Shown here: in pieces, positions 14,453 through 21,422 of the stretch
How positions within the stretch are numbered: position 1 is the stretch's first letter
How the letters are laid out: every line of letters starts with the position of its first letter
DNA from: a virus
Virus record (IMG/VR): IMGVR_UViG_3300043788_000060
Span: 32,001-96,000 of that record
DNA length: 64,000 nucleotides
Reading direction: 5' to 3' (one strand)
Made by a program: the position numbers and the translations under genes
Notes under the pieces: model-generated
Databases searched by the model: none
Seen by the model: the letters and a program-made list of their open reading frames with translations, nothing else
Told to the model about the DNA's origin: nothing

Positions 14453-16933
14453 ATGAGTTACTCTCCTACAAGTATCGTCACGAGCGGGGCGCTTCCGAAC
14501 TTAGTCGCAATTCACTATGAGCGCGAAGCTGTTCCCAACCTCAAGGCGCAAACTCCTTTCCTTTCCATGACCAAGCAGCGTCCGCTGCCGTTGCGGCAAG
14601 GTAACCAGATTCAGTTCTACACCTACGCGATCTTGGCTGCAAACCTGAACCAAGCCGCTGAGGGAACCGTGAATAAACCTGCGGTTCTAAAATTCGCCCA
14701 AATCCGTCAATACCTGTTTGCAGAAGCCGCCTAGTGTGGTATAATGTGAATAGACAAGACGGAGGAAAATTCTTGCGAAGCGACATCCATCCCAAGCGTT
14801 GGGCTTTCATAGCCGGTCTAATTGACGGTGATGGAAGTTTCAGTATCCGATATGACAAAGAGTCCGGATATCAATTAACTGTTAACATATATTCGACATC
14901 GAGAAATCTGATGAACTGGTTGGTCAAGCTGATTGGTGGCCAGTATCGAAAGATGCCTACGAAGGGCAATCGTAAACAGCGGTATGCTTGGTATTCAGGG
15001 AATTCAGAAATTCCCACCAATGTTGCTCCGTATCTCATTCTCAAGAAAAGTCAGGCAGAGTCTTCCGTTCTATTCTTTAATCTTGGCTCAGAGAGAAATC
15101 CTCAAGCTAGAGAAGAATTGATGAGAGACATTCAAAATGCTAATGACTTTTATGTACCAGCCAATAAAAAAGATGTACAGGATAGTCGAAAAAATCCGAT
15201 AGAACCCACCAAACTGGATTGGGCCTATCTCTCCGGATTGTTTGATGCTGAGGGGTCTTTCGGCCTCCAAAGGCGCAGCAAAAAGGGCAACGGTTCCTAT
15301 ACATCTTACGCACGAATTTCAAACACAGATAATCGGGTATTCTTGTGGATCGCGCCCCGCTTCGGCGGTCGGTTTTCGGTTACTACCAAGGAACACGATA
15401 AAGATGAAGGCGCATGGACGTTGTCCGGCTCCATCGGTTTAGAAGGAAGAAAAGATCGAGAGAACAAACTCTTGGCTTTGGTTCCTTATCTGGTTGCTAA
15501 GAAAGAACGTGCGGTGCTCTTTATGGAGTGGATTAGAAATAACCACCTATTGACCAAAGAGCAAAAATTGGATTATTTTCTGAGAATGAAGGCGTTGAAC
15601 AAACGCGGAATCTCTCTAGAGACTAATACGGCGAACTGTCCAGAAAATGGACAGATGATAGAGTCCGATCCTGATAGCGATATCAGGTGCGACCCAGCAG
15701 TGATGTTGGAGTCCTAAAACACAAATAAGGAAGCCCGATCTCCGAATCGAGCACCAAGATCGTTGCTACCATCGGGCAGTATGCCGATTTTATCAACAGT
15801 TCTGACTTGGCTCTCGACGTAGCAATCGACGATCCGGGTTTGCTCCAGAATCTGGCAAACGAACTCAACTACCGGCTTGCTCTTACCCTCAACTCTCTTG
15901 TCCAGATCACAGCGGACTCGGCAGTTGCGGTGGACTCGCTGGTCAACACACAACTGGCCAACGGCTCGTATCTGACGGCGAACAACCTTCGTTCGGCAGT
16001 TCAGTCGCTGGTATCGGTCAACGCACGGCCTCTCGTAAATAACTCCTACGGTGGAATCATTCACCCGAACGTGGTACGAGACATCCTCAACGACACGTCT
16101 TTCAATGGTCTAACCGACATTGTAAAGCGCGATCCTGAGATGGCGAAGATGCTGTACGAACTCCCGAAGAATGATGATGTTATCAAGTTCGCCGGGGTCA
16201 CGTTCAAGCAAACAAGCACTGCGCCGACGGTGACCATCAGTTCGAACACGTATTACAACACTTACATCTTCGGGGACGACGCGATTTTCAGCGTCTTCTT
16301 GGGCAAGAATCCCGAGGATGGATCGAAGAACTATTTGCAAAAAGTAGCTTGAGCGGGCAACTGCTCTCGAACAGACCGTAAATTCGGTGGAACCCTCACA
16401 GAGGCAATACCGAGCCAAGTCGCGAAAGCGGAAGGTGTAGAGACTAGAGACGGTCCTCCCTATGGGATGATAGTATAGTCCGGACTGCACAGCGATGTGC
16501 AGAGGCAAACAGAAATGATTTGCCCGTCCGAATAATGGACAGTAACAAAACGAAACTCTTCATCCAGAGTGCGCCTGAGCAGGGAAGTGTAAGTGATCCA
16601 GCACGTCAACTTTAGGCGTCACTAAGGCGAAATCCTTAGAAGAAAATTCTATCTAATTGACTTGGAAGCTGAGAAGCCAACAAGGCGGAACCCAGAAATC
16701 GGGACCGTGAGAGACTAAACGATAGAACACCCTTTGGGGTGATGCGATAGTCCGGCCTCATACGAAATGAAGTATGAGAGGTGTGCAGAAATGACGCACC
16801 CCGTCCATTTTAGACGAGTAACATTCCGCAAATTGGAGGCTGGGTTTCTTACAATGTACGGTACACAAACACTTTGCGTCCGGGCAGCACAATGACGCTA
16901 AGACGTTTGCAATCAGAGACATCCAGTTCATAG
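14453..16933 (+). CDS. major capsid protein, N4-gp56 family, 4 exons: 14453-14670, 15728 or 15731-16334, 16553-16606, 16829-16933 (326-327 aa)
   Basis: Spliced product reads ...PLRQGNQIQF...EGTV(G)SP...ATIGQYADF...GIIHP...SKNY|KLFIQ...SDPAR|QIGGWVSY...SSS*, matching the N4-gp56-type motifs EG-x-QYG, IHP and DP..Q..GW. Confidence 0.88.
14717..14746 (+). promoter_or_regulatory. sigma70-type extended -10 promoter inside intron 1
   Basis: TTTGCA-17-TATAAT with TGTGG extension, upstream of the LAGLIDADG ORF. Confidence 0.7.
14773..15717 (+). CDS. double-motif LAGLIDADG homing endonuclease (intron encoded)
   Basis: FIAGLIDGDGSF and YLSGLFDAEGSF; GGAGG SD at 14761 before TTG. Confidence 0.93.
   Translation: MRSDIHPKRWAFIAGLIDGDGSFSIRYDKESGYQLTVNIYSTSRNLMNWLVKLIGGQYRKMPTKGNRKQRYAWYSGNSEIPTNVAPYLILKKSQAESSVLFFNLGSERNPQAREELMRDIQNANDFYVPANKKDVQDSRKNPIEPTKLDWAYLSGLFDAEGSFGLQRRSKKGNGSYTSYARISNTDNRVFLWIAPRFGGRFSVTTKEHDKDEGAWTLSGSIGLEGRKDRENKLLALVPYLVAKKERAVLFMEWIRNNHLLTKEQKLDYFLRMKALNKRGISLETNTANCPENGQMIESDPDSDIRCDPAVMLES
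16335..16552 (+). mobile_element. group I intron 2 of the capsid gene (ORF-less, 218 nt)
   Basis: 5' exon ends CTAT pairing with GTAG; core AATTCGGTGGAA..GCAATACCGAGCC, GAGACTA/ATAGTCC; terminal G16552 restores the frame. Confidence 0.9.
16607..16828 (+). mobile_element. group I intron 3 of the capsid gene (ORF-less, 222 nt)
   Basis: P1 ACGT/GCGT, P3 TTCTATC/GATAGAA, GAGACTA/ATAGTCC; terminal G16828 restores the frame. Confidence 0.9.
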
Positions 16934-16962: not shown

Positions 16963-16994
16963 TTTACACAAAGCCATTAAACTGTGGTATAATG
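16963..16994 (+). promoter_or_regulatory. extended -10 promoter for the GIY-YIG gene
   Basis: TTTACA...TGTGGTATAATG. Confidence 0.7.
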
Positions 16995-17073
16995 TATTTG
17001 AGTTTCGAAATTCAAACCGGGAAGGGCGGTACCTCACTACCGCCCAACTCGACTCATGTGAGGATGAGAGAAC

Positions 17074-17853
17074 ATGTATTACATCTATTTGGTAACGAAT
17101 AAAGTCAACGGAAAGATTTATGTTGGTCAGACTGGGTTGACCATAGAGGAACGTTTTAAAAGTCACATCTGGTCTCGGAACAAGGACGATCATTTTCATG
17201 CGGCAATCCGAAAGTATGGAGAAGACGCTTTCGTCATCCAAGAGTTGGGCAAGTTCGAATCTCTCGAAGAAGCCAACAACGCAGAATCTTTGTGGATAAT
17301 CTCCCTTCGATCCTACGACAGCAAAATTGGCTACAACACGAAATTTGGTGGCGAAAACGGAGGAGCCCCCACCGAAGAAACAAGAATCAAAATCGGATTA
17401 GCAAGCAGCCAAAGAGTTCATGCTGCTGAGACTCGGGAAAAGATGCGAAATTCTCATCTCAAACGCCAAGGAAAAACTACTTCCCACGAGGGAGTGGGGG
17501 TTTTTAAAGGACGTTTTCGGGCGAGAATCAAGATTCACGGAAAAGAAATTTCTTTGGGACAACACGATACCATTGAAGAGGCGGTTGAGTTTCGAAAAAA
17601 GAGTTTAGAACGGCTGAGCCAAATCGGACTAGAAGCTTTCACGGGAGAACTAGAAATCTTCCGTAAAGAAGTAAACAAGAAAAGAATCGCAAACCGGCCT
17701 CACAGAGGACCTTTATCTGACGAAGAAAAGGAACAGATTAGTATTCGCACCAAGAAACGATGGGCGAAGAACTTTAATTGGATGGACGCTCAATTCGTTT
17801 CTCCCTTTGTAACGGACGCCCAAACCCAGCAGAACGATCAGGTTGCATCATGA
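17074..17853 (+). CDS. free-standing GIY-YIG homing endonuclease with NUMOD3 and AP2-like domains
   Basis: YIYLVTN..GKIYVGQT..R, GYN; HAAETREKMRNSH; GVGVFKGRFRARIKIHGKEISLG..TIEEA. Confidence 0.9.
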   Translation: MYYIYLVTNKVNGKIYVGQTGLTIEERFKSHIWSRNKDDHFHAAIRKYGEDAFVIQELGKFESLEEANNAESLWIISLRSYDSKIGYNTKFGGENGGAPTEETRIKIGLASSQRVHAAETREKMRNSHLKRQGKTTSHEGVGVFKGRFRARIKIHGKEISLGQHDTIEEAVEFRKKSLERLSQIGLEAFTGELEIFRKEVNKKRIANRPHRGPLSDEEKEQISIRTKKRWAKNFNWMDAQFVSPFVTDAQTQQNDQVAS

Positions 17854-19251: not shown

Positions 19252-20196
19252 ATGATGTACACGCAGGGATACATAGCATCTTTGAAGGTCGGAGGTAAAA
19301 TCCTCCGGGAATCAAACGGAACAGTTTCGCTCCCATTTGGGTCTGAATATTCCGTGCTCCTCAAAAACAAACTCTCCCGTCGGGCTCAAGTCAAAGTCGA
19401 AGTAGACGGCCAAGACGCGACCGAGGGAACCAAGCTGATCCTGCCCGCAAACGGATCGCTGGAGCTAGAACGCTTTATCAAGTCTGGCAACCTAAAAGCG
19501 GGCAACAAGTTCAAGTTTATCGAACGGACTTCGAAGATCGAAGAACACCGGGGAATCAAAGAAGACGACGGCTTGATCCGAATCGAATTCTGGGCTGAGA
19601 AAGAAGTCGTAGATGTACCGGTTGTCCGGCATCATTATTACGATGATTGGGTTCCAGTCCGCAGATATTACTGGGATCGCCCGTGGTATGATCCGTACTA
19701 CCCGACATGGCCTCAACCGACGATTACTTGGAATTCCAATTCCGGTATCCAAACTTCCTGCTATAATACAAGCGGAAGTTTAGGAGAGGCACAAAGCGAT
19801 AATCTGGGCTCGGCGCAAAATTTTTCTGGCAGTTTGCAAAAATCTTCTGCGAGACAGACCAGAAGTCTACACCCGCAAGCGTCTAGCGGCATCACTCGCG
19901 ATTCAGGTCAGCAAGTTCATGCTCAGAACTGCATGATGGCGGAAACCAGTTTCAACGACGCAGGAATCACGGTCCCGGGAAGTCACTCAAACCAAGAGTT
20001 CCAAAGCACTTACGGGTTTGAAACCGAATCGAACAGTCACGTGATTGTACTTCAGTTGCGGGGTGTGGTTGGGGACAAACCAGTCGTAGTTCCGGTTACC
20101 GTAGACCACAAGCCGGTCTGCCCAACCTGCGGAACTACAAACAAGGCGCAAAATAAATTCTGCAAAGAATGCGGAACGGCCTTGCAATTAGTCTAA
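19252..20196 (+). CDS. conserved phage protein with C-terminal zinc ribbon
   Basis: 314 aa; CPTC...KFCKECG; AAGGAG SD. Confidence 0.8.
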   Translation: MMYTQGYIASLKVGGKILRESNGTVSLPFGSEYSVLLKNKLSRRAQVKVEVDGQDATEGTKLILPANGSLELERFIKSGNLKAGNKFKFIERTSKIEEHRGIKEDDGLIRIEFWAEKEVVDVPVVRHHYYDDWVPVRRYYWDRPWYDPYYPTWPQPTITWNSNSGIQTSCYNTSGSLGEAQSDNLGSAQNFSGSLQKSSARQTRSLHPQASSGITRDSGQQVHAQNCMMAETSFNDAGITVPGSHSNQEFQSTYGFETESNSHVIVLQLRGVVGDKPVVVPVTVDHKPVCPTCGTTNKAQNKFCKECGTALQLV

Positions 20197-20210
20197 AGTG
20201 TGGTATAATG
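20182..20210 (+). promoter_or_regulatory. sigma70-type promoter upstream of the large ncRNA
   Basis: TTGCAA-16-TATAAT with TGTGG extension. Confidence 0.72.
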
Positions 20211-20214
20211 TATT

Positions 20215-21005
20215 TGTTAGGTAGCGGGTTTCACCGGCCAAGGCGGAGTCTTTAAGCGAGAACAAAAACGGGAATGACTCTAACCGGTAGAGTGACCTTG
20301 GTTTGCAGATAGCAACATAACCGCCCAGAGCGTGATTATGCTGCCTATAAATTTCGAGTTTGCGTAAATCGAGGGATGCTGGCTACTGAGGAGCGAAGGT
20401 AGCTGGATCGGGAACTTCCCAAACCACCCCGATCTTTGCCCTCCTTGCTCAGAAATGACGATTTACGCAATGAAGGTGAGGGCCACGGTTGGTCATACGT
20501 CCAAACTGTTGGGTAGGTACTGGATGGGACAGCCTCCAACAGCCCGTGGCCTGATTCCCAAAGGACAACATGATTGATTCAGAGTTTGGTTGGTGGCGTA
20601 GTTGGATTAGTGAGCTTCTTTCCTAGATCGATCTGGGAAAGATGAACCAGAGGTAGTTTCAGTTCAGCCCTCTCACCCCCGGAAGTCATGAGCCGGACTC
20701 GGGTGCTTATTAGAACTGAAGCGGGGATGGGGCTCGGGTTTGGCCTCAACGCATACCCACGGGGTTCATTACCCAACAGGCCCAACATTTTAGGTTTGAC
20801 CCTCTTCGGAGGAGAACAGCAACAAGCGGAACTTTAGTTCACACAAACTTGAGTTTTGACGCATCCCCCTCGCCCGGTACCTGCTTGTTTGGGGTGGCCC
20901 CTGAATTCCTAGGAATTCAGTAATCCGGTGGTCAAATGGTGGTGACACCTACCAGCCTGTGTGGGCAAAGTGGTGTGACTCTAGCATTCTCAGAGTAGAA
21001 GCTTA
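20215..21005 (+). ncRNA. large structured ncRNA candidate (~800 nt; GOLLD/ROOL size class)
   Basis: No credible ORF; nested helices TAGGTAGC/GCTGCCTA, TTGCGTAAATCG/CGATTTACGCAA, GATCGGG/CCCGATC, GGCCACGG/CCGTGGCC, TTCAGTTC/GAACTGAA, CTGAATTCCTAGGAATTCAG. Confidence 0.75.
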
Positions 21006-21038
21006 ATTTCGTCCAGATAATGGACTAGGGAGAAAACG

Positions 21039-21194
21039 ATGGCACCAAAGCATCCGGGGTTCAAAGCAGTTCAATCGAAGATCGCAGGAGAAGGCTATAG
21101 CAAGAAAGCAGCCGGAGCGATCCTCGCAAACGCGACACGAAATGCCAGCAAGTCTGCGAAGGCAAAGAACCCCAAACTCCGCAAAGTCAAGTAG
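21039..21194 (+). CDS. small basic phage protein
   Basis: MAPKHPGFKAVQSKIAGEGYSKKAAGAILANATRNASKSAKAKNPKLRKVK; GGGAG SD. Confidence 0.75.
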   Translation: MAPKHPGFKAVQSKIAGEGYSKKAAGAILANATRNASKSAKAKNPKLRKVK

Positions 21195-21422
21195 ATGGAA
21201 GAATCTCTTCAAATCCACCACAGCGAGCAGATTCACTGGGCTTCCTACGATCCGGACACCCAGCAATTGAACCTGACGCTCAACGACCGGAGAAAGCACG
21301 GGTATTCGCCGGTCCCCCAAAAGGTGGTTAACGGATTTGTCCGCGCTAAATCCCACGGGGATTTTTTCCACAAGAACATCAGAAACAACCCGAATTACCG
21401 ATACCACGGAAAGGTAGAATGA
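21195..21422 (+). CDS. KTSC domain protein
   Basis: SEQIHWASYDPDTQQL...Y..VP...A.S.G.FF..NIR. Confidence 0.82.
   Translation: MEESLQIHHSEQIHWASYDPDTQQLNLTLNDRRKHGYSPVPQKVVNGFVRAKSHGDFFHKNIRNNPNYRYHGKVE

Follow-up and report, generated by a model that had tools for sequence, protein, structure and literature searches.

What does a phage carry in some 840 nt of DNA that hold no gene? The question is raised by a stretch at 20197–21038 of a complete 110-kb IMG/VR virus record (coordinates are those of the window, the 64,000 nt of that record analyzed here), which lies between an ORF of 314 aa that stops at 20196 and an ORF of 51 aa whose ATG is at 21039. A preliminary description had read this stretch as a single ornate noncoding RNA of ~800 nt, transcribed from its own promoter, held together by many long-range pairings, and placed in the size class of the GOLLD and ROOL RNAs.

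The noncoding stretch and its promoter

The absence of genes from this stretch is real, as no genetic code makes it coding. All six frames are interrupted by 9–18 stops each, and because all three kinds of stop codon are present in every frame, stop-codon recoding opens none of them. The recoding of a single stop was rejected for this reason, and a suppressor tRNA was rejected too, as none of the 13 tRNAs of the window is one. ORFs internal to the stretch reach at most 69 aa, and the longest of these have no match in Pfam and a single, marginal match in PHROG (E = 0.036). A conserved protein-coding frame, the finding that the preliminary description had set against its own RNA, was looked for in the stop codons, in protein families, and in the substitutions; no open frame, family match, or codon-position bias of a protein-coding gene or pseudogene was found.

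Known RNA families do not account for the stretch. When the whole window is scanned with Rfam 15 at the gathering score, only tRNAs are returned, and when the region is searched at E ≤ 10, the sole match is to a spurious miRNA model at 16 bits. The covariance models of GOLLD, ROOL, OLE, HEARO, and tmRNA, which the preliminary description had singled out for checking, were run, and none of these families matches the stretch. A group I or group II intron was considered and rejected, in that no Rfam intron model matches and relatives without the insert have the flanking genes as complete, separate units. A blastn search with the region found no DNA relatives among GenBank phages. Elsewhere in the window, three group I introns have been claimed for a capsid gene (14453–16933); as the gathering scan returned no intron model, such introns, if they exist, have diverged too far for Rfam. 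The tRNA cluster at 198–2746 comprises 13 tRNAs according to ARAGORN and 11 according to Rfam, with disagreements that include Thr-tgt at 198, Pro-cgg at 809, a 95-nt Ile-tat at 1431, and Lys-ctt at 1527.

The stretch begins behind a host-type promoter (Table 1). The TTGCAA-16-TATAAT element of the preliminary description is confirmed, and it carries an extended −10 TG with which it scores 10/12. It is the sole sigma-70-like site within 3.5 kb and is kept in four relatives (L003, L252, L255, and L256). We infer a transcript start near 20216, 1 nt ahead of the closing stem of the first RNA module (module A, see below), and the spacing between the −10 element and this stem is identical in L252, L263, L267, and L219. 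The extended −10 string TGGTATAAT is present in 11 copies in the 110-kb genome, where ~0.8 would be expected; a copy at 14737 falls inside the capsid gene region. A near-identical copy of the promoter at 16978–16996 (CTGTGGTATAATGTATTTG) drives, through a leader of ~80 nt, a free-standing GIY-YIG homing endonuclease of 259 aa (ATG 17074; region 16978–17853) located just after the capsid gene region. From this twin, promoters of this type can be seen to head accessory cargo in the genome. When viral contigs were scanned with the promoter string, 43 matches were obtained, nearly all of them unrelated generic promoters.

On its downstream side the stretch is bounded by a motif, a Shine-Dalgarno sequence, and the start codon of the 51-aa gene, and the motif copy that the preliminary description had placed beside the stretch is indeed found there. 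The same arrangement of motif, Shine-Dalgarno sequence, and gene is seen in L003, L255, L256, and L263. In its genome-wide form, (TTC)GTCCGAATAATGGAC, the motif has 26 copies in the window versus 0.55 expected, at sites that include 1412, 2808, 18958, 21008, 22712, 40328(−), and 56931(−). It is oriented like the gene that it precedes, whose Shine-Dalgarno sequence and start codon lie just 3′ of it, and looks like a phage-specific promoter, a processing site, or a translation signal. No terminator is predicted within the stretch, and none follows module A in minimal relatives, such that read-through into the 51-aa gene and the KTSC-domain gene behind it is expected. In the region 21039–21419, the lysine-rich 51-aa protein, for which viral contigs contain at least 140 relatives, matches no Pfam or PHROG family; the next gene encodes the KTSC-domain protein (PF13619, E = 9e-14). 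For the 314-aa protein upstream, which has 120 relatives, only a C-terminal zinc ribbon is recognizable.

Table 1. Features of the stretch between the 314-aa and 51-aa ORFs, in window coordinates
Feature	Position	Strand	Description
Host-type promoter	20182..20209	+	−35 TTGCAA 20182-20187, 16-nt spacer, extended −10 TGGTATAAT 20201-20209
Module A	20217..20348	+	Structured RNA, ~132 nt; P1, P2, P3 and conserved blocks; 14 members
A P1	20217-20226 with 20339-20348	+	Closing stem, 10 pairs
A P2	20231-20234 with 20332-20335	+	UCAC/GUGA, invariant
A P3	within 20217-20348	+	CCAAGG/CCUUGG in window; 13 distinct helices among members
H1	20351..20465	+	Long irregular hairpin with GCGUAAAUCG/CGAUUUACGC base; fold z = −1.0
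Module B	20472..20561	+	Structured RNA, ~90 nt, three-way junction; 4 distinct members
B P1	20481-20488 with 20544-20551	+	GGCCACGG/CCGUGGCC, invariant 8-bp stem
B P2	20490-20503	+	Variable hairpin; GAAA loop in 3/4 members
B P3 and apical extension	20506-20522 with 20530-20542	+	Long arm, conserved apical loop
B candidate loop-tail pseudoknot	20525-20529 with 20556-20560	+	UGGGA/UCCCA, possible; invariant in members
H2	20568..20652	+	18-codon stub ORF 20570-20626 after AAGGA Shine-Dalgarno; fold z = −2.0
H2 hairpin	20617-20626 with 20631-20640		10 bp
C	20653..20798	+	Candidate structured RNA; 10-bp stem GUUUCAGUUC/GAACUGAAGC and small covarying hairpin
D	20794..20901	+	Conserved segment; in relatives' contigs after B (X4 record 15, X2 record 5)
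E	20902..21004	+	Begins with perfect palindrome CTGAATTCCTAGGAATTCAG; fold z = −0.3
Downstream boundary	21008..21041	+	Motif TTCGTCCAGATAATGGAC 21008-21025, Shine-Dalgarno GGGAG, ATG 21039 (51-aa gene)

Two autonomous structured RNA modules

Module A is an autonomous structured RNA: it is closed by a terminal helix, its helices change in a compensatory manner, and it is found alone in other phages. String scans of viral, metagenome, and genome sequences yielded 14 distinct full-length members and one that is truncated at a contig end. P1 differs in every one of the 14, with seven of its ten pairs changed on both sides (35 cells), and P1 and P2 together pair in 99% of cells. Covariation amounts to 0.578 compared with 0.167 in shuffles, a value that none of 500 shuffles reaches, and controls with slid strands stay at or below 0.11; sliding the partner strand of P1 lowers pairing to 22–50%. 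P3 is exchanged as freely, with variants such as GGCGGGG/CCCCGCC, GUCGUUC/GAACGAT, CUUUGAC/GUCAAAG, and ACUGG/CCAGU. The P1 helices include ten G-U pairs and no A-C mismatches, which identifies the plus strand, that of the promoter, as the functional strand.

The conserved part of module A consists of three blocks, GCGGGUUUCACCGG, a central (GAAGC..)AGAACA, and ACCGCCYAGAGCGUGAUUAUGC. Because the metagenome and genome scans demanded the string of the third block, its invariance is partly built in; the first block, which these scans did not demand, is near-invariant all the same. In six members, the −10 element of a TGGTAnnAT promoter lies 6–7 nt 5′ of P1, and in these the RNA therefore begins with module A. 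The covariance model scores the window copy at 82 bits and finds no second copy in the genome. A match to the third block in one prokaryotic MAG (among 185,579 species genomes) lies inside an ORF, is not accompanied by block 1, and was set aside as chance, as was a match of the same kind in L269. Readings of the invariant loops as a k-turn, a tetraloop-receptor, or a ykkC-like motif were rejected, the strand arrangement being unfit by eye and Rfam giving no match.

Module B is a second autonomous structured RNA, likewise with its own terminal helix, with compensatory changes, and with occurrences on its own in other phages. Its four distinct members come from the window, L252, L267 (identical to L281 and L284), and L282, and their folds agree. 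Across these four sequences 7 of 30 pairs are changed on both sides and 99.2% of cells pair, and the covariation of 0.289 (0.114 in shuffles) is again attained by none of 500 shuffles. The variable hairpin illustrates the pattern, as it reads UUGG../..CCAA, CCAC-GAAA-GUGG, CCUA-GAAA-UAGG, or CUAC-GAAA-GUAG. A covariance model gives 109 bits to a single copy in the window, and the module is absent from ~180 other loci searched. Modules A and B, each on its own, show the covariation for which the preliminary description had proposed to look.

Segment C is a candidate structured RNA, supported at a moderate level by two sequences. It is 86.5% identical to L252:1413–1567, which is placed before module B there, and it also appears in contigs from public sequencing runs. 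Between the window and L252, its small hairpin changes from GGGU/ACCC to GGAG/CUCC, that is, by two compensatory pairs. A 49-aa ORF in C is open in L252, but coding is unlikely given that substitutions are distributed 13/15/17 by codon position and that a pair of indels scrambles 8 codons. The single match to C in viral contigs lies inside a gene and was rejected as chance.

For the other segments, H1, H2, D, and E, structural support is absent, and they may represent filler or the remains of genes. The fold of D is no better than that of shuffles (z = +0.6), and a scan of viral contigs with D gave no match. No homologues of H1, H2, or E were found, with H1 being absent from all relatives and all loci examined. 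In an alignment, the start of the H2 stub resembles the start of the 50-aa ORF that follows module B in L267, and H2 may perhaps be a remnant of that small ORF; part of the filler may, on the strength of this resemblance, be gene debris. The 20-nt palindrome CTGAATTCCTAGGAATTCAG (20901–20920) is composed of two EcoRI sites around an AvrII site and matches itself on both strands; from its sequence, it could form a hairpin or be bound by a dimeric protein.

Separable cassettes among relatives

Related soil and peat phages vary the number and the order of these segments. The simplest arrangements are those of L255 and L256, in which the promoter is followed by module A (the first ~135 nt), ~90 nt, and then the gene, and of L263, in which ~120 nt separate A from the gene. 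In L267, module A is followed by B (window 20472–20562), the 50-aa ORF, and then the gene. L252 has A, then window 20645–20798 (segment C), and then 20466–20567 (module B), the reverse of the window order. Contigs from public sequencing runs show the order A-C-B-D with the promoter, and they also contain joints at which segments are missing: one leads from A straight to the gene (20345>21005) and another from A to 20656 (20345>20656), both skipping H1, and a third leaves out E in one relative (20901>21005). In yet another arrangement, a copy of the genome-wide motif, GTCCGGAAAATGGAC, directly precedes segment D in a run contig of one relative (loose end at 20794). These runs contain at most 0.11 of the sampled words in any one run and were used as contigs only, in which parts without cover are uninformative. 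Contigs from an RNA library carry the A, B, C, and D of relatives, which weakly suggests transcription, as these are contigs and DNA may have been carried over.

The same slot can hold other material. L003 is the closest relative in viral contigs, with 68–86% protein identity in the flanking genes, and it shares the gene end, the promoter, the terminal motif, and the small gene; its 470-nt spacer is unalignable with the window. This different noncoding filler (L003:4938–5408) ends in ~30 nt (CUGACAGCCGGGAAAGACCGGCACAA) common to L255 and L256, and it may hold further RNA cassettes. Whole-record searches in five relatives, one of them 97% complete, matched only positions 1–135 of the stretch. 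Among 74 relatives, the small gene is preceded by an ORF-free gap of 35 nt at the median and of at most 369 nt, and by this measure the ~840 nt of the window represent an accumulation. Together with the differences in cassette number and order among close relatives, these gaps describe a slot behind the promoter that accumulates and exchanges RNA cargo.

Neither module is tied to the flanking genes. In 160 loci around homologues of the two flanking genes, module A was found only in L128 and module B in none, and both occur sporadically in unrelated phage contexts. A 15-kb metagenome contig, L260, contains two different copies of A 2.3 kb apart (L260:1–129 and L260:2317–2451). In a contig that overlaps L260, a tRNA gene (L261:535–608(−)) follows A on the same strand at a distance of ~500 nt.

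Taken as a whole, the stretch is not a single ornate RNA, ~800 nt long, in the size class of GOLLD and ROOL. In no homologue is it kept as a unit; its homologues have one, two, four, or none of the segments, in varying order. The three pairs of complementary strings listed in the preliminary description are present where it had placed them, with all three 3′ partners in segment D, but the many long-range pairings and likely pseudoknot built on them do not exceed what dinucleotide shuffles produce. In 791 nt there are 16 Watson-Crick helices of at least 7 bp, compared with 12.5 ± 3.6 in shuffles, and 4 long-range helices of at least 12 bp with G-U allowed, compared with a shuffle mean of 2.15; 90% of shuffles have at least one of the latter. 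The fold of the whole region is unremarkable, with z about −1.7 on either strand. The pairing proposed between 20512 and 20874 is contradicted: the string at 20512, GGUAGGUACUGG, has a local partner inside module B, this local pair shows a compensatory change in L267 (AGG/CCU to AAG/CUU), and module B occurs in L267 and L282 without segment D.

We consider the stretch to be, with good probability, a tandem array of portable RNA modules behind a conserved promoter, transcribed rightward into the 51-aa/KTSC cluster, in other words, a promoter-driven series of separable RNA cassettes. Phage transcripts with several small RNAs are not without parallel. The species 1 and 2 RNAs of T4 are stable small RNAs co-transcribed with the phage tRNA array, and the array of the window resembles them in that several small structured RNAs would come from one phage transcript. 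It differs in that it lies 18 kb from the tRNA cluster, in a structural-gene region, and in that its units shuffle between relatives.

Possible roles of the modules

The positions of modules A and B suggest 5′-leader domains. Module A ends 16–30 nt 5′ of a start codon in six members (L254, L268, L232, L258, L262, and L235), and module B ends 12–15 nt 5′ of one in two (L282 and L267). Both resemble riboswitches and protein-binding leader aptamers in having a closing P1 and covarying helices around near-invariant loops, and in often lying 12–30 nt 5′ of a Shine-Dalgarno sequence and start codon that share their strand. They are unlike such aptamers in that the genes downstream, which encode a homing endonuclease, small membrane proteins, a secreted protein, and what is probably a large terminase, are unrelated to one another, in that some copies are distant or antisense, and in the expression platform: no general alternative pairing was found, with L268 alone having a plausible hairpin, judged by eye, that sequesters the Shine-Dalgarno sequence after A. 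For riboswitches, downstream genes without a common theme are unusual. Although the architecture of the modules is shown, their biochemical role as leader domains is a proposal that we prefer to its rivals and consider possible, if short of probable.

Host RNA polymerase would transcribe the array rightward from the conserved extended −10 promoter. If the modules do act as leaders, A and B would fold on transcription, with A at about +1 of the transcript. Their near-invariant internal loops would bind a common partner, which could be a small ligand or else a protein (a phage regulator, for example, or the ribosome or RNA polymerase), and this binding would tune the expression of whatever gene lies downstream. 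In the phage of the window, several leader modules would have piled up in one leader. A and B might then be two new classes of ligand-binding or polymerase/ribosome-binding regulatory RNA (riboswitch-like or ribozymes), plug-in 5′ cassettes that soil and peat phages would swap and stack ahead of arbitrary genes; we advance this more specific version tentatively.

A purely cis-acting role is disfavored by several copies of A. In L219, A lies on the opposite strand to both neighboring genes, has its own promoter, and is followed by no ORF, and it looks like a stand-alone small RNA rather than a leader. In L128, L259, L260, and the window, A lies 110–690 nt from the next gene. The cassettes could accordingly be trans-acting stand-alone small RNAs, cut at the intervening hairpins from the primary transcript, whose targets would be factors of the host or the phage; they might, for example, be anti-defense or host-takeover cargo of a hyperplastic slot. 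The L219 copy, which is antisense to its neighbors and followed by a hairpin, would fit such a role, as would the two different copies in L260, the variable presence of cassettes among close relatives, the terminal helix that closes each module, and the promoter type that the slot has in common with the homing endonuclease. However, no terminator is predicted in the array and the processing sites are hypothetical, no partner protein gene co-occurs, and the many members located 12–30 nt 5′ of a same-strand start codon fit a cis role better. We regard trans-acting small RNAs as unlikely, while still deserving of attention.

Could A or B, or both, instead be new self-cleaving ribozymes that process the leader? 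Small self-cleaving ribozymes of different classes (hammerhead, twister, pistol, and hatchet) tend to cluster in phage-like DNA. Pistol ribozymes, in particular, lie near phage genes (PMC6154101). The array is similar in that several different compact structured RNAs adjoin one another in tandem in phage DNA, 5′ of unrelated genes, and the modules themselves are compact junctions of 90–135 nt in which the loop nucleotides are near-invariant and the helices vary. In contrast to these clusters, A and B match none of the known classes and are described here from sequence, in which no cleavage site can be inferred. Moreover, A is located at the 5′ end of the transcript, where cleavage on the 5′ side achieves nothing. 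Self-cleavage is thus an improbable function for these modules.

A role in antitermination appears to be a similarly poor prospect. The put RNA of phage HK022 is ~70 nt long, has two stem-loops, and suppresses downstream terminators, with putL located just downstream of PL (PMC9378689). Like putL and putR, module A is structured, stands where a host-polymerase transcript begins (in six members at about +1 to +2 of a host-type promoter, much like putL), and might need no dedicated protein to act in cis, in this case by binding polymerase and making it resistant to pausing or termination. Its place 5′ of a long gene cluster and a −10-like GATTAT within its invariant block would suit such an activity. 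At 96–139 nt, however, with three stacked helices and a variable core, A differs from put in size and architecture and has no sequence similarity to it (PMC9378689). It is promoter-proximal in only 6 of 14 members, the other 8 having no recognizable adjacent promoter, no terminators are predicted downstream, and the L219 copy faces away from any gene.

Explanations that do not involve RNA at all, such as a replication origin, a single-stranded-DNA structure, or decayed protein-coding genes, are very improbable. The cumulative GC skew does have a local maximum near 21000, but the genome-wide profile is noisy and contains several similar extrema, and an origin assigned by skew was rejected for this reason. 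Decay would be consistent with the H2 stub, which resembles the beginning of a real ORF in L267, and with the 49-aa ORF of segment C that is open in L252 and has the marginal PHROG match (E = 0.036). Against it stand the lack of protein family matches, the lack of third-position bias in the substitutions of C, and the variable hairpin of B, which shifts in length by 2 nt and would break reading frames. The G-U pairs without A-C mismatches indicate a fold specific to one strand, and the start of module A is at a fixed distance from the promoter, which likewise speak against a reading without RNA.

That leaves the single large RNA with which we began. GOLLD and ROOL are large ornate RNAs, associated with phages and tRNAs, that form RNA-only multimers (bioRxiv 10.1101/2024.12.08.627333). 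The stretch resembles them in being noncoding, phage-borne, ~800 nt in total, and part of a tRNA-rich genome, and it differs in having no Rfam match, no conservation as a unit, and no supported long-range architecture, its segments being independent. One GOLLD/ROOL-like RNA that folds as a unit through long-range helices, for which the long ORF-free stretch, the one promoter with no internal terminator, the complementary strings, and the tRNA-rich phage could be cited, is scarcely credible in light of the empty Rfam search even at E ≤ 10, the chance-level helices, the subsets and reordering of segments in relatives, and the local pairing of the 20512 string in a module that occurs without D.

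Returning to a tandem array of portable modules, the families of A and B appear to be new. In ten contigs that carry A, B, or C, Rfam shows nothing on the modules at E ≤ 1, and a search of the searchable literature with the invariant strings of A and B produced only a chance primer match, the candidate lists of PMC10690425 lying outside this comparison. Orphan structured phage RNAs are in themselves an already known kind, with >10,000 candidates catalogued in 2023 (PMC10690425). As no known RNA family matches A or B, the novelty that the preliminary description claimed for the whole survives for these parts of the stretch. What is unusual is the arrangement, in which cassettes are stacked and shuffled behind one promoter.

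Overall, modules A and B combine unusually clean support, namely near-invariant loop blocks and helices that are different in almost every member, with absence from Rfam, from the searchable literature, and, one chance match aside, from 185,579 prokaryotic species genomes. They are two compact RNAs, of ~90 and ~100–135 nt, that are ready for binding, cleavage, and reporter assays. The shuffled, interchangeable cassettes of these phages amount to a natural experiment on modular RNA regulation. If the proposal is true, these phages would possess a portable RNA toolkit for gene control, of which the window would represent the largest stack so far.
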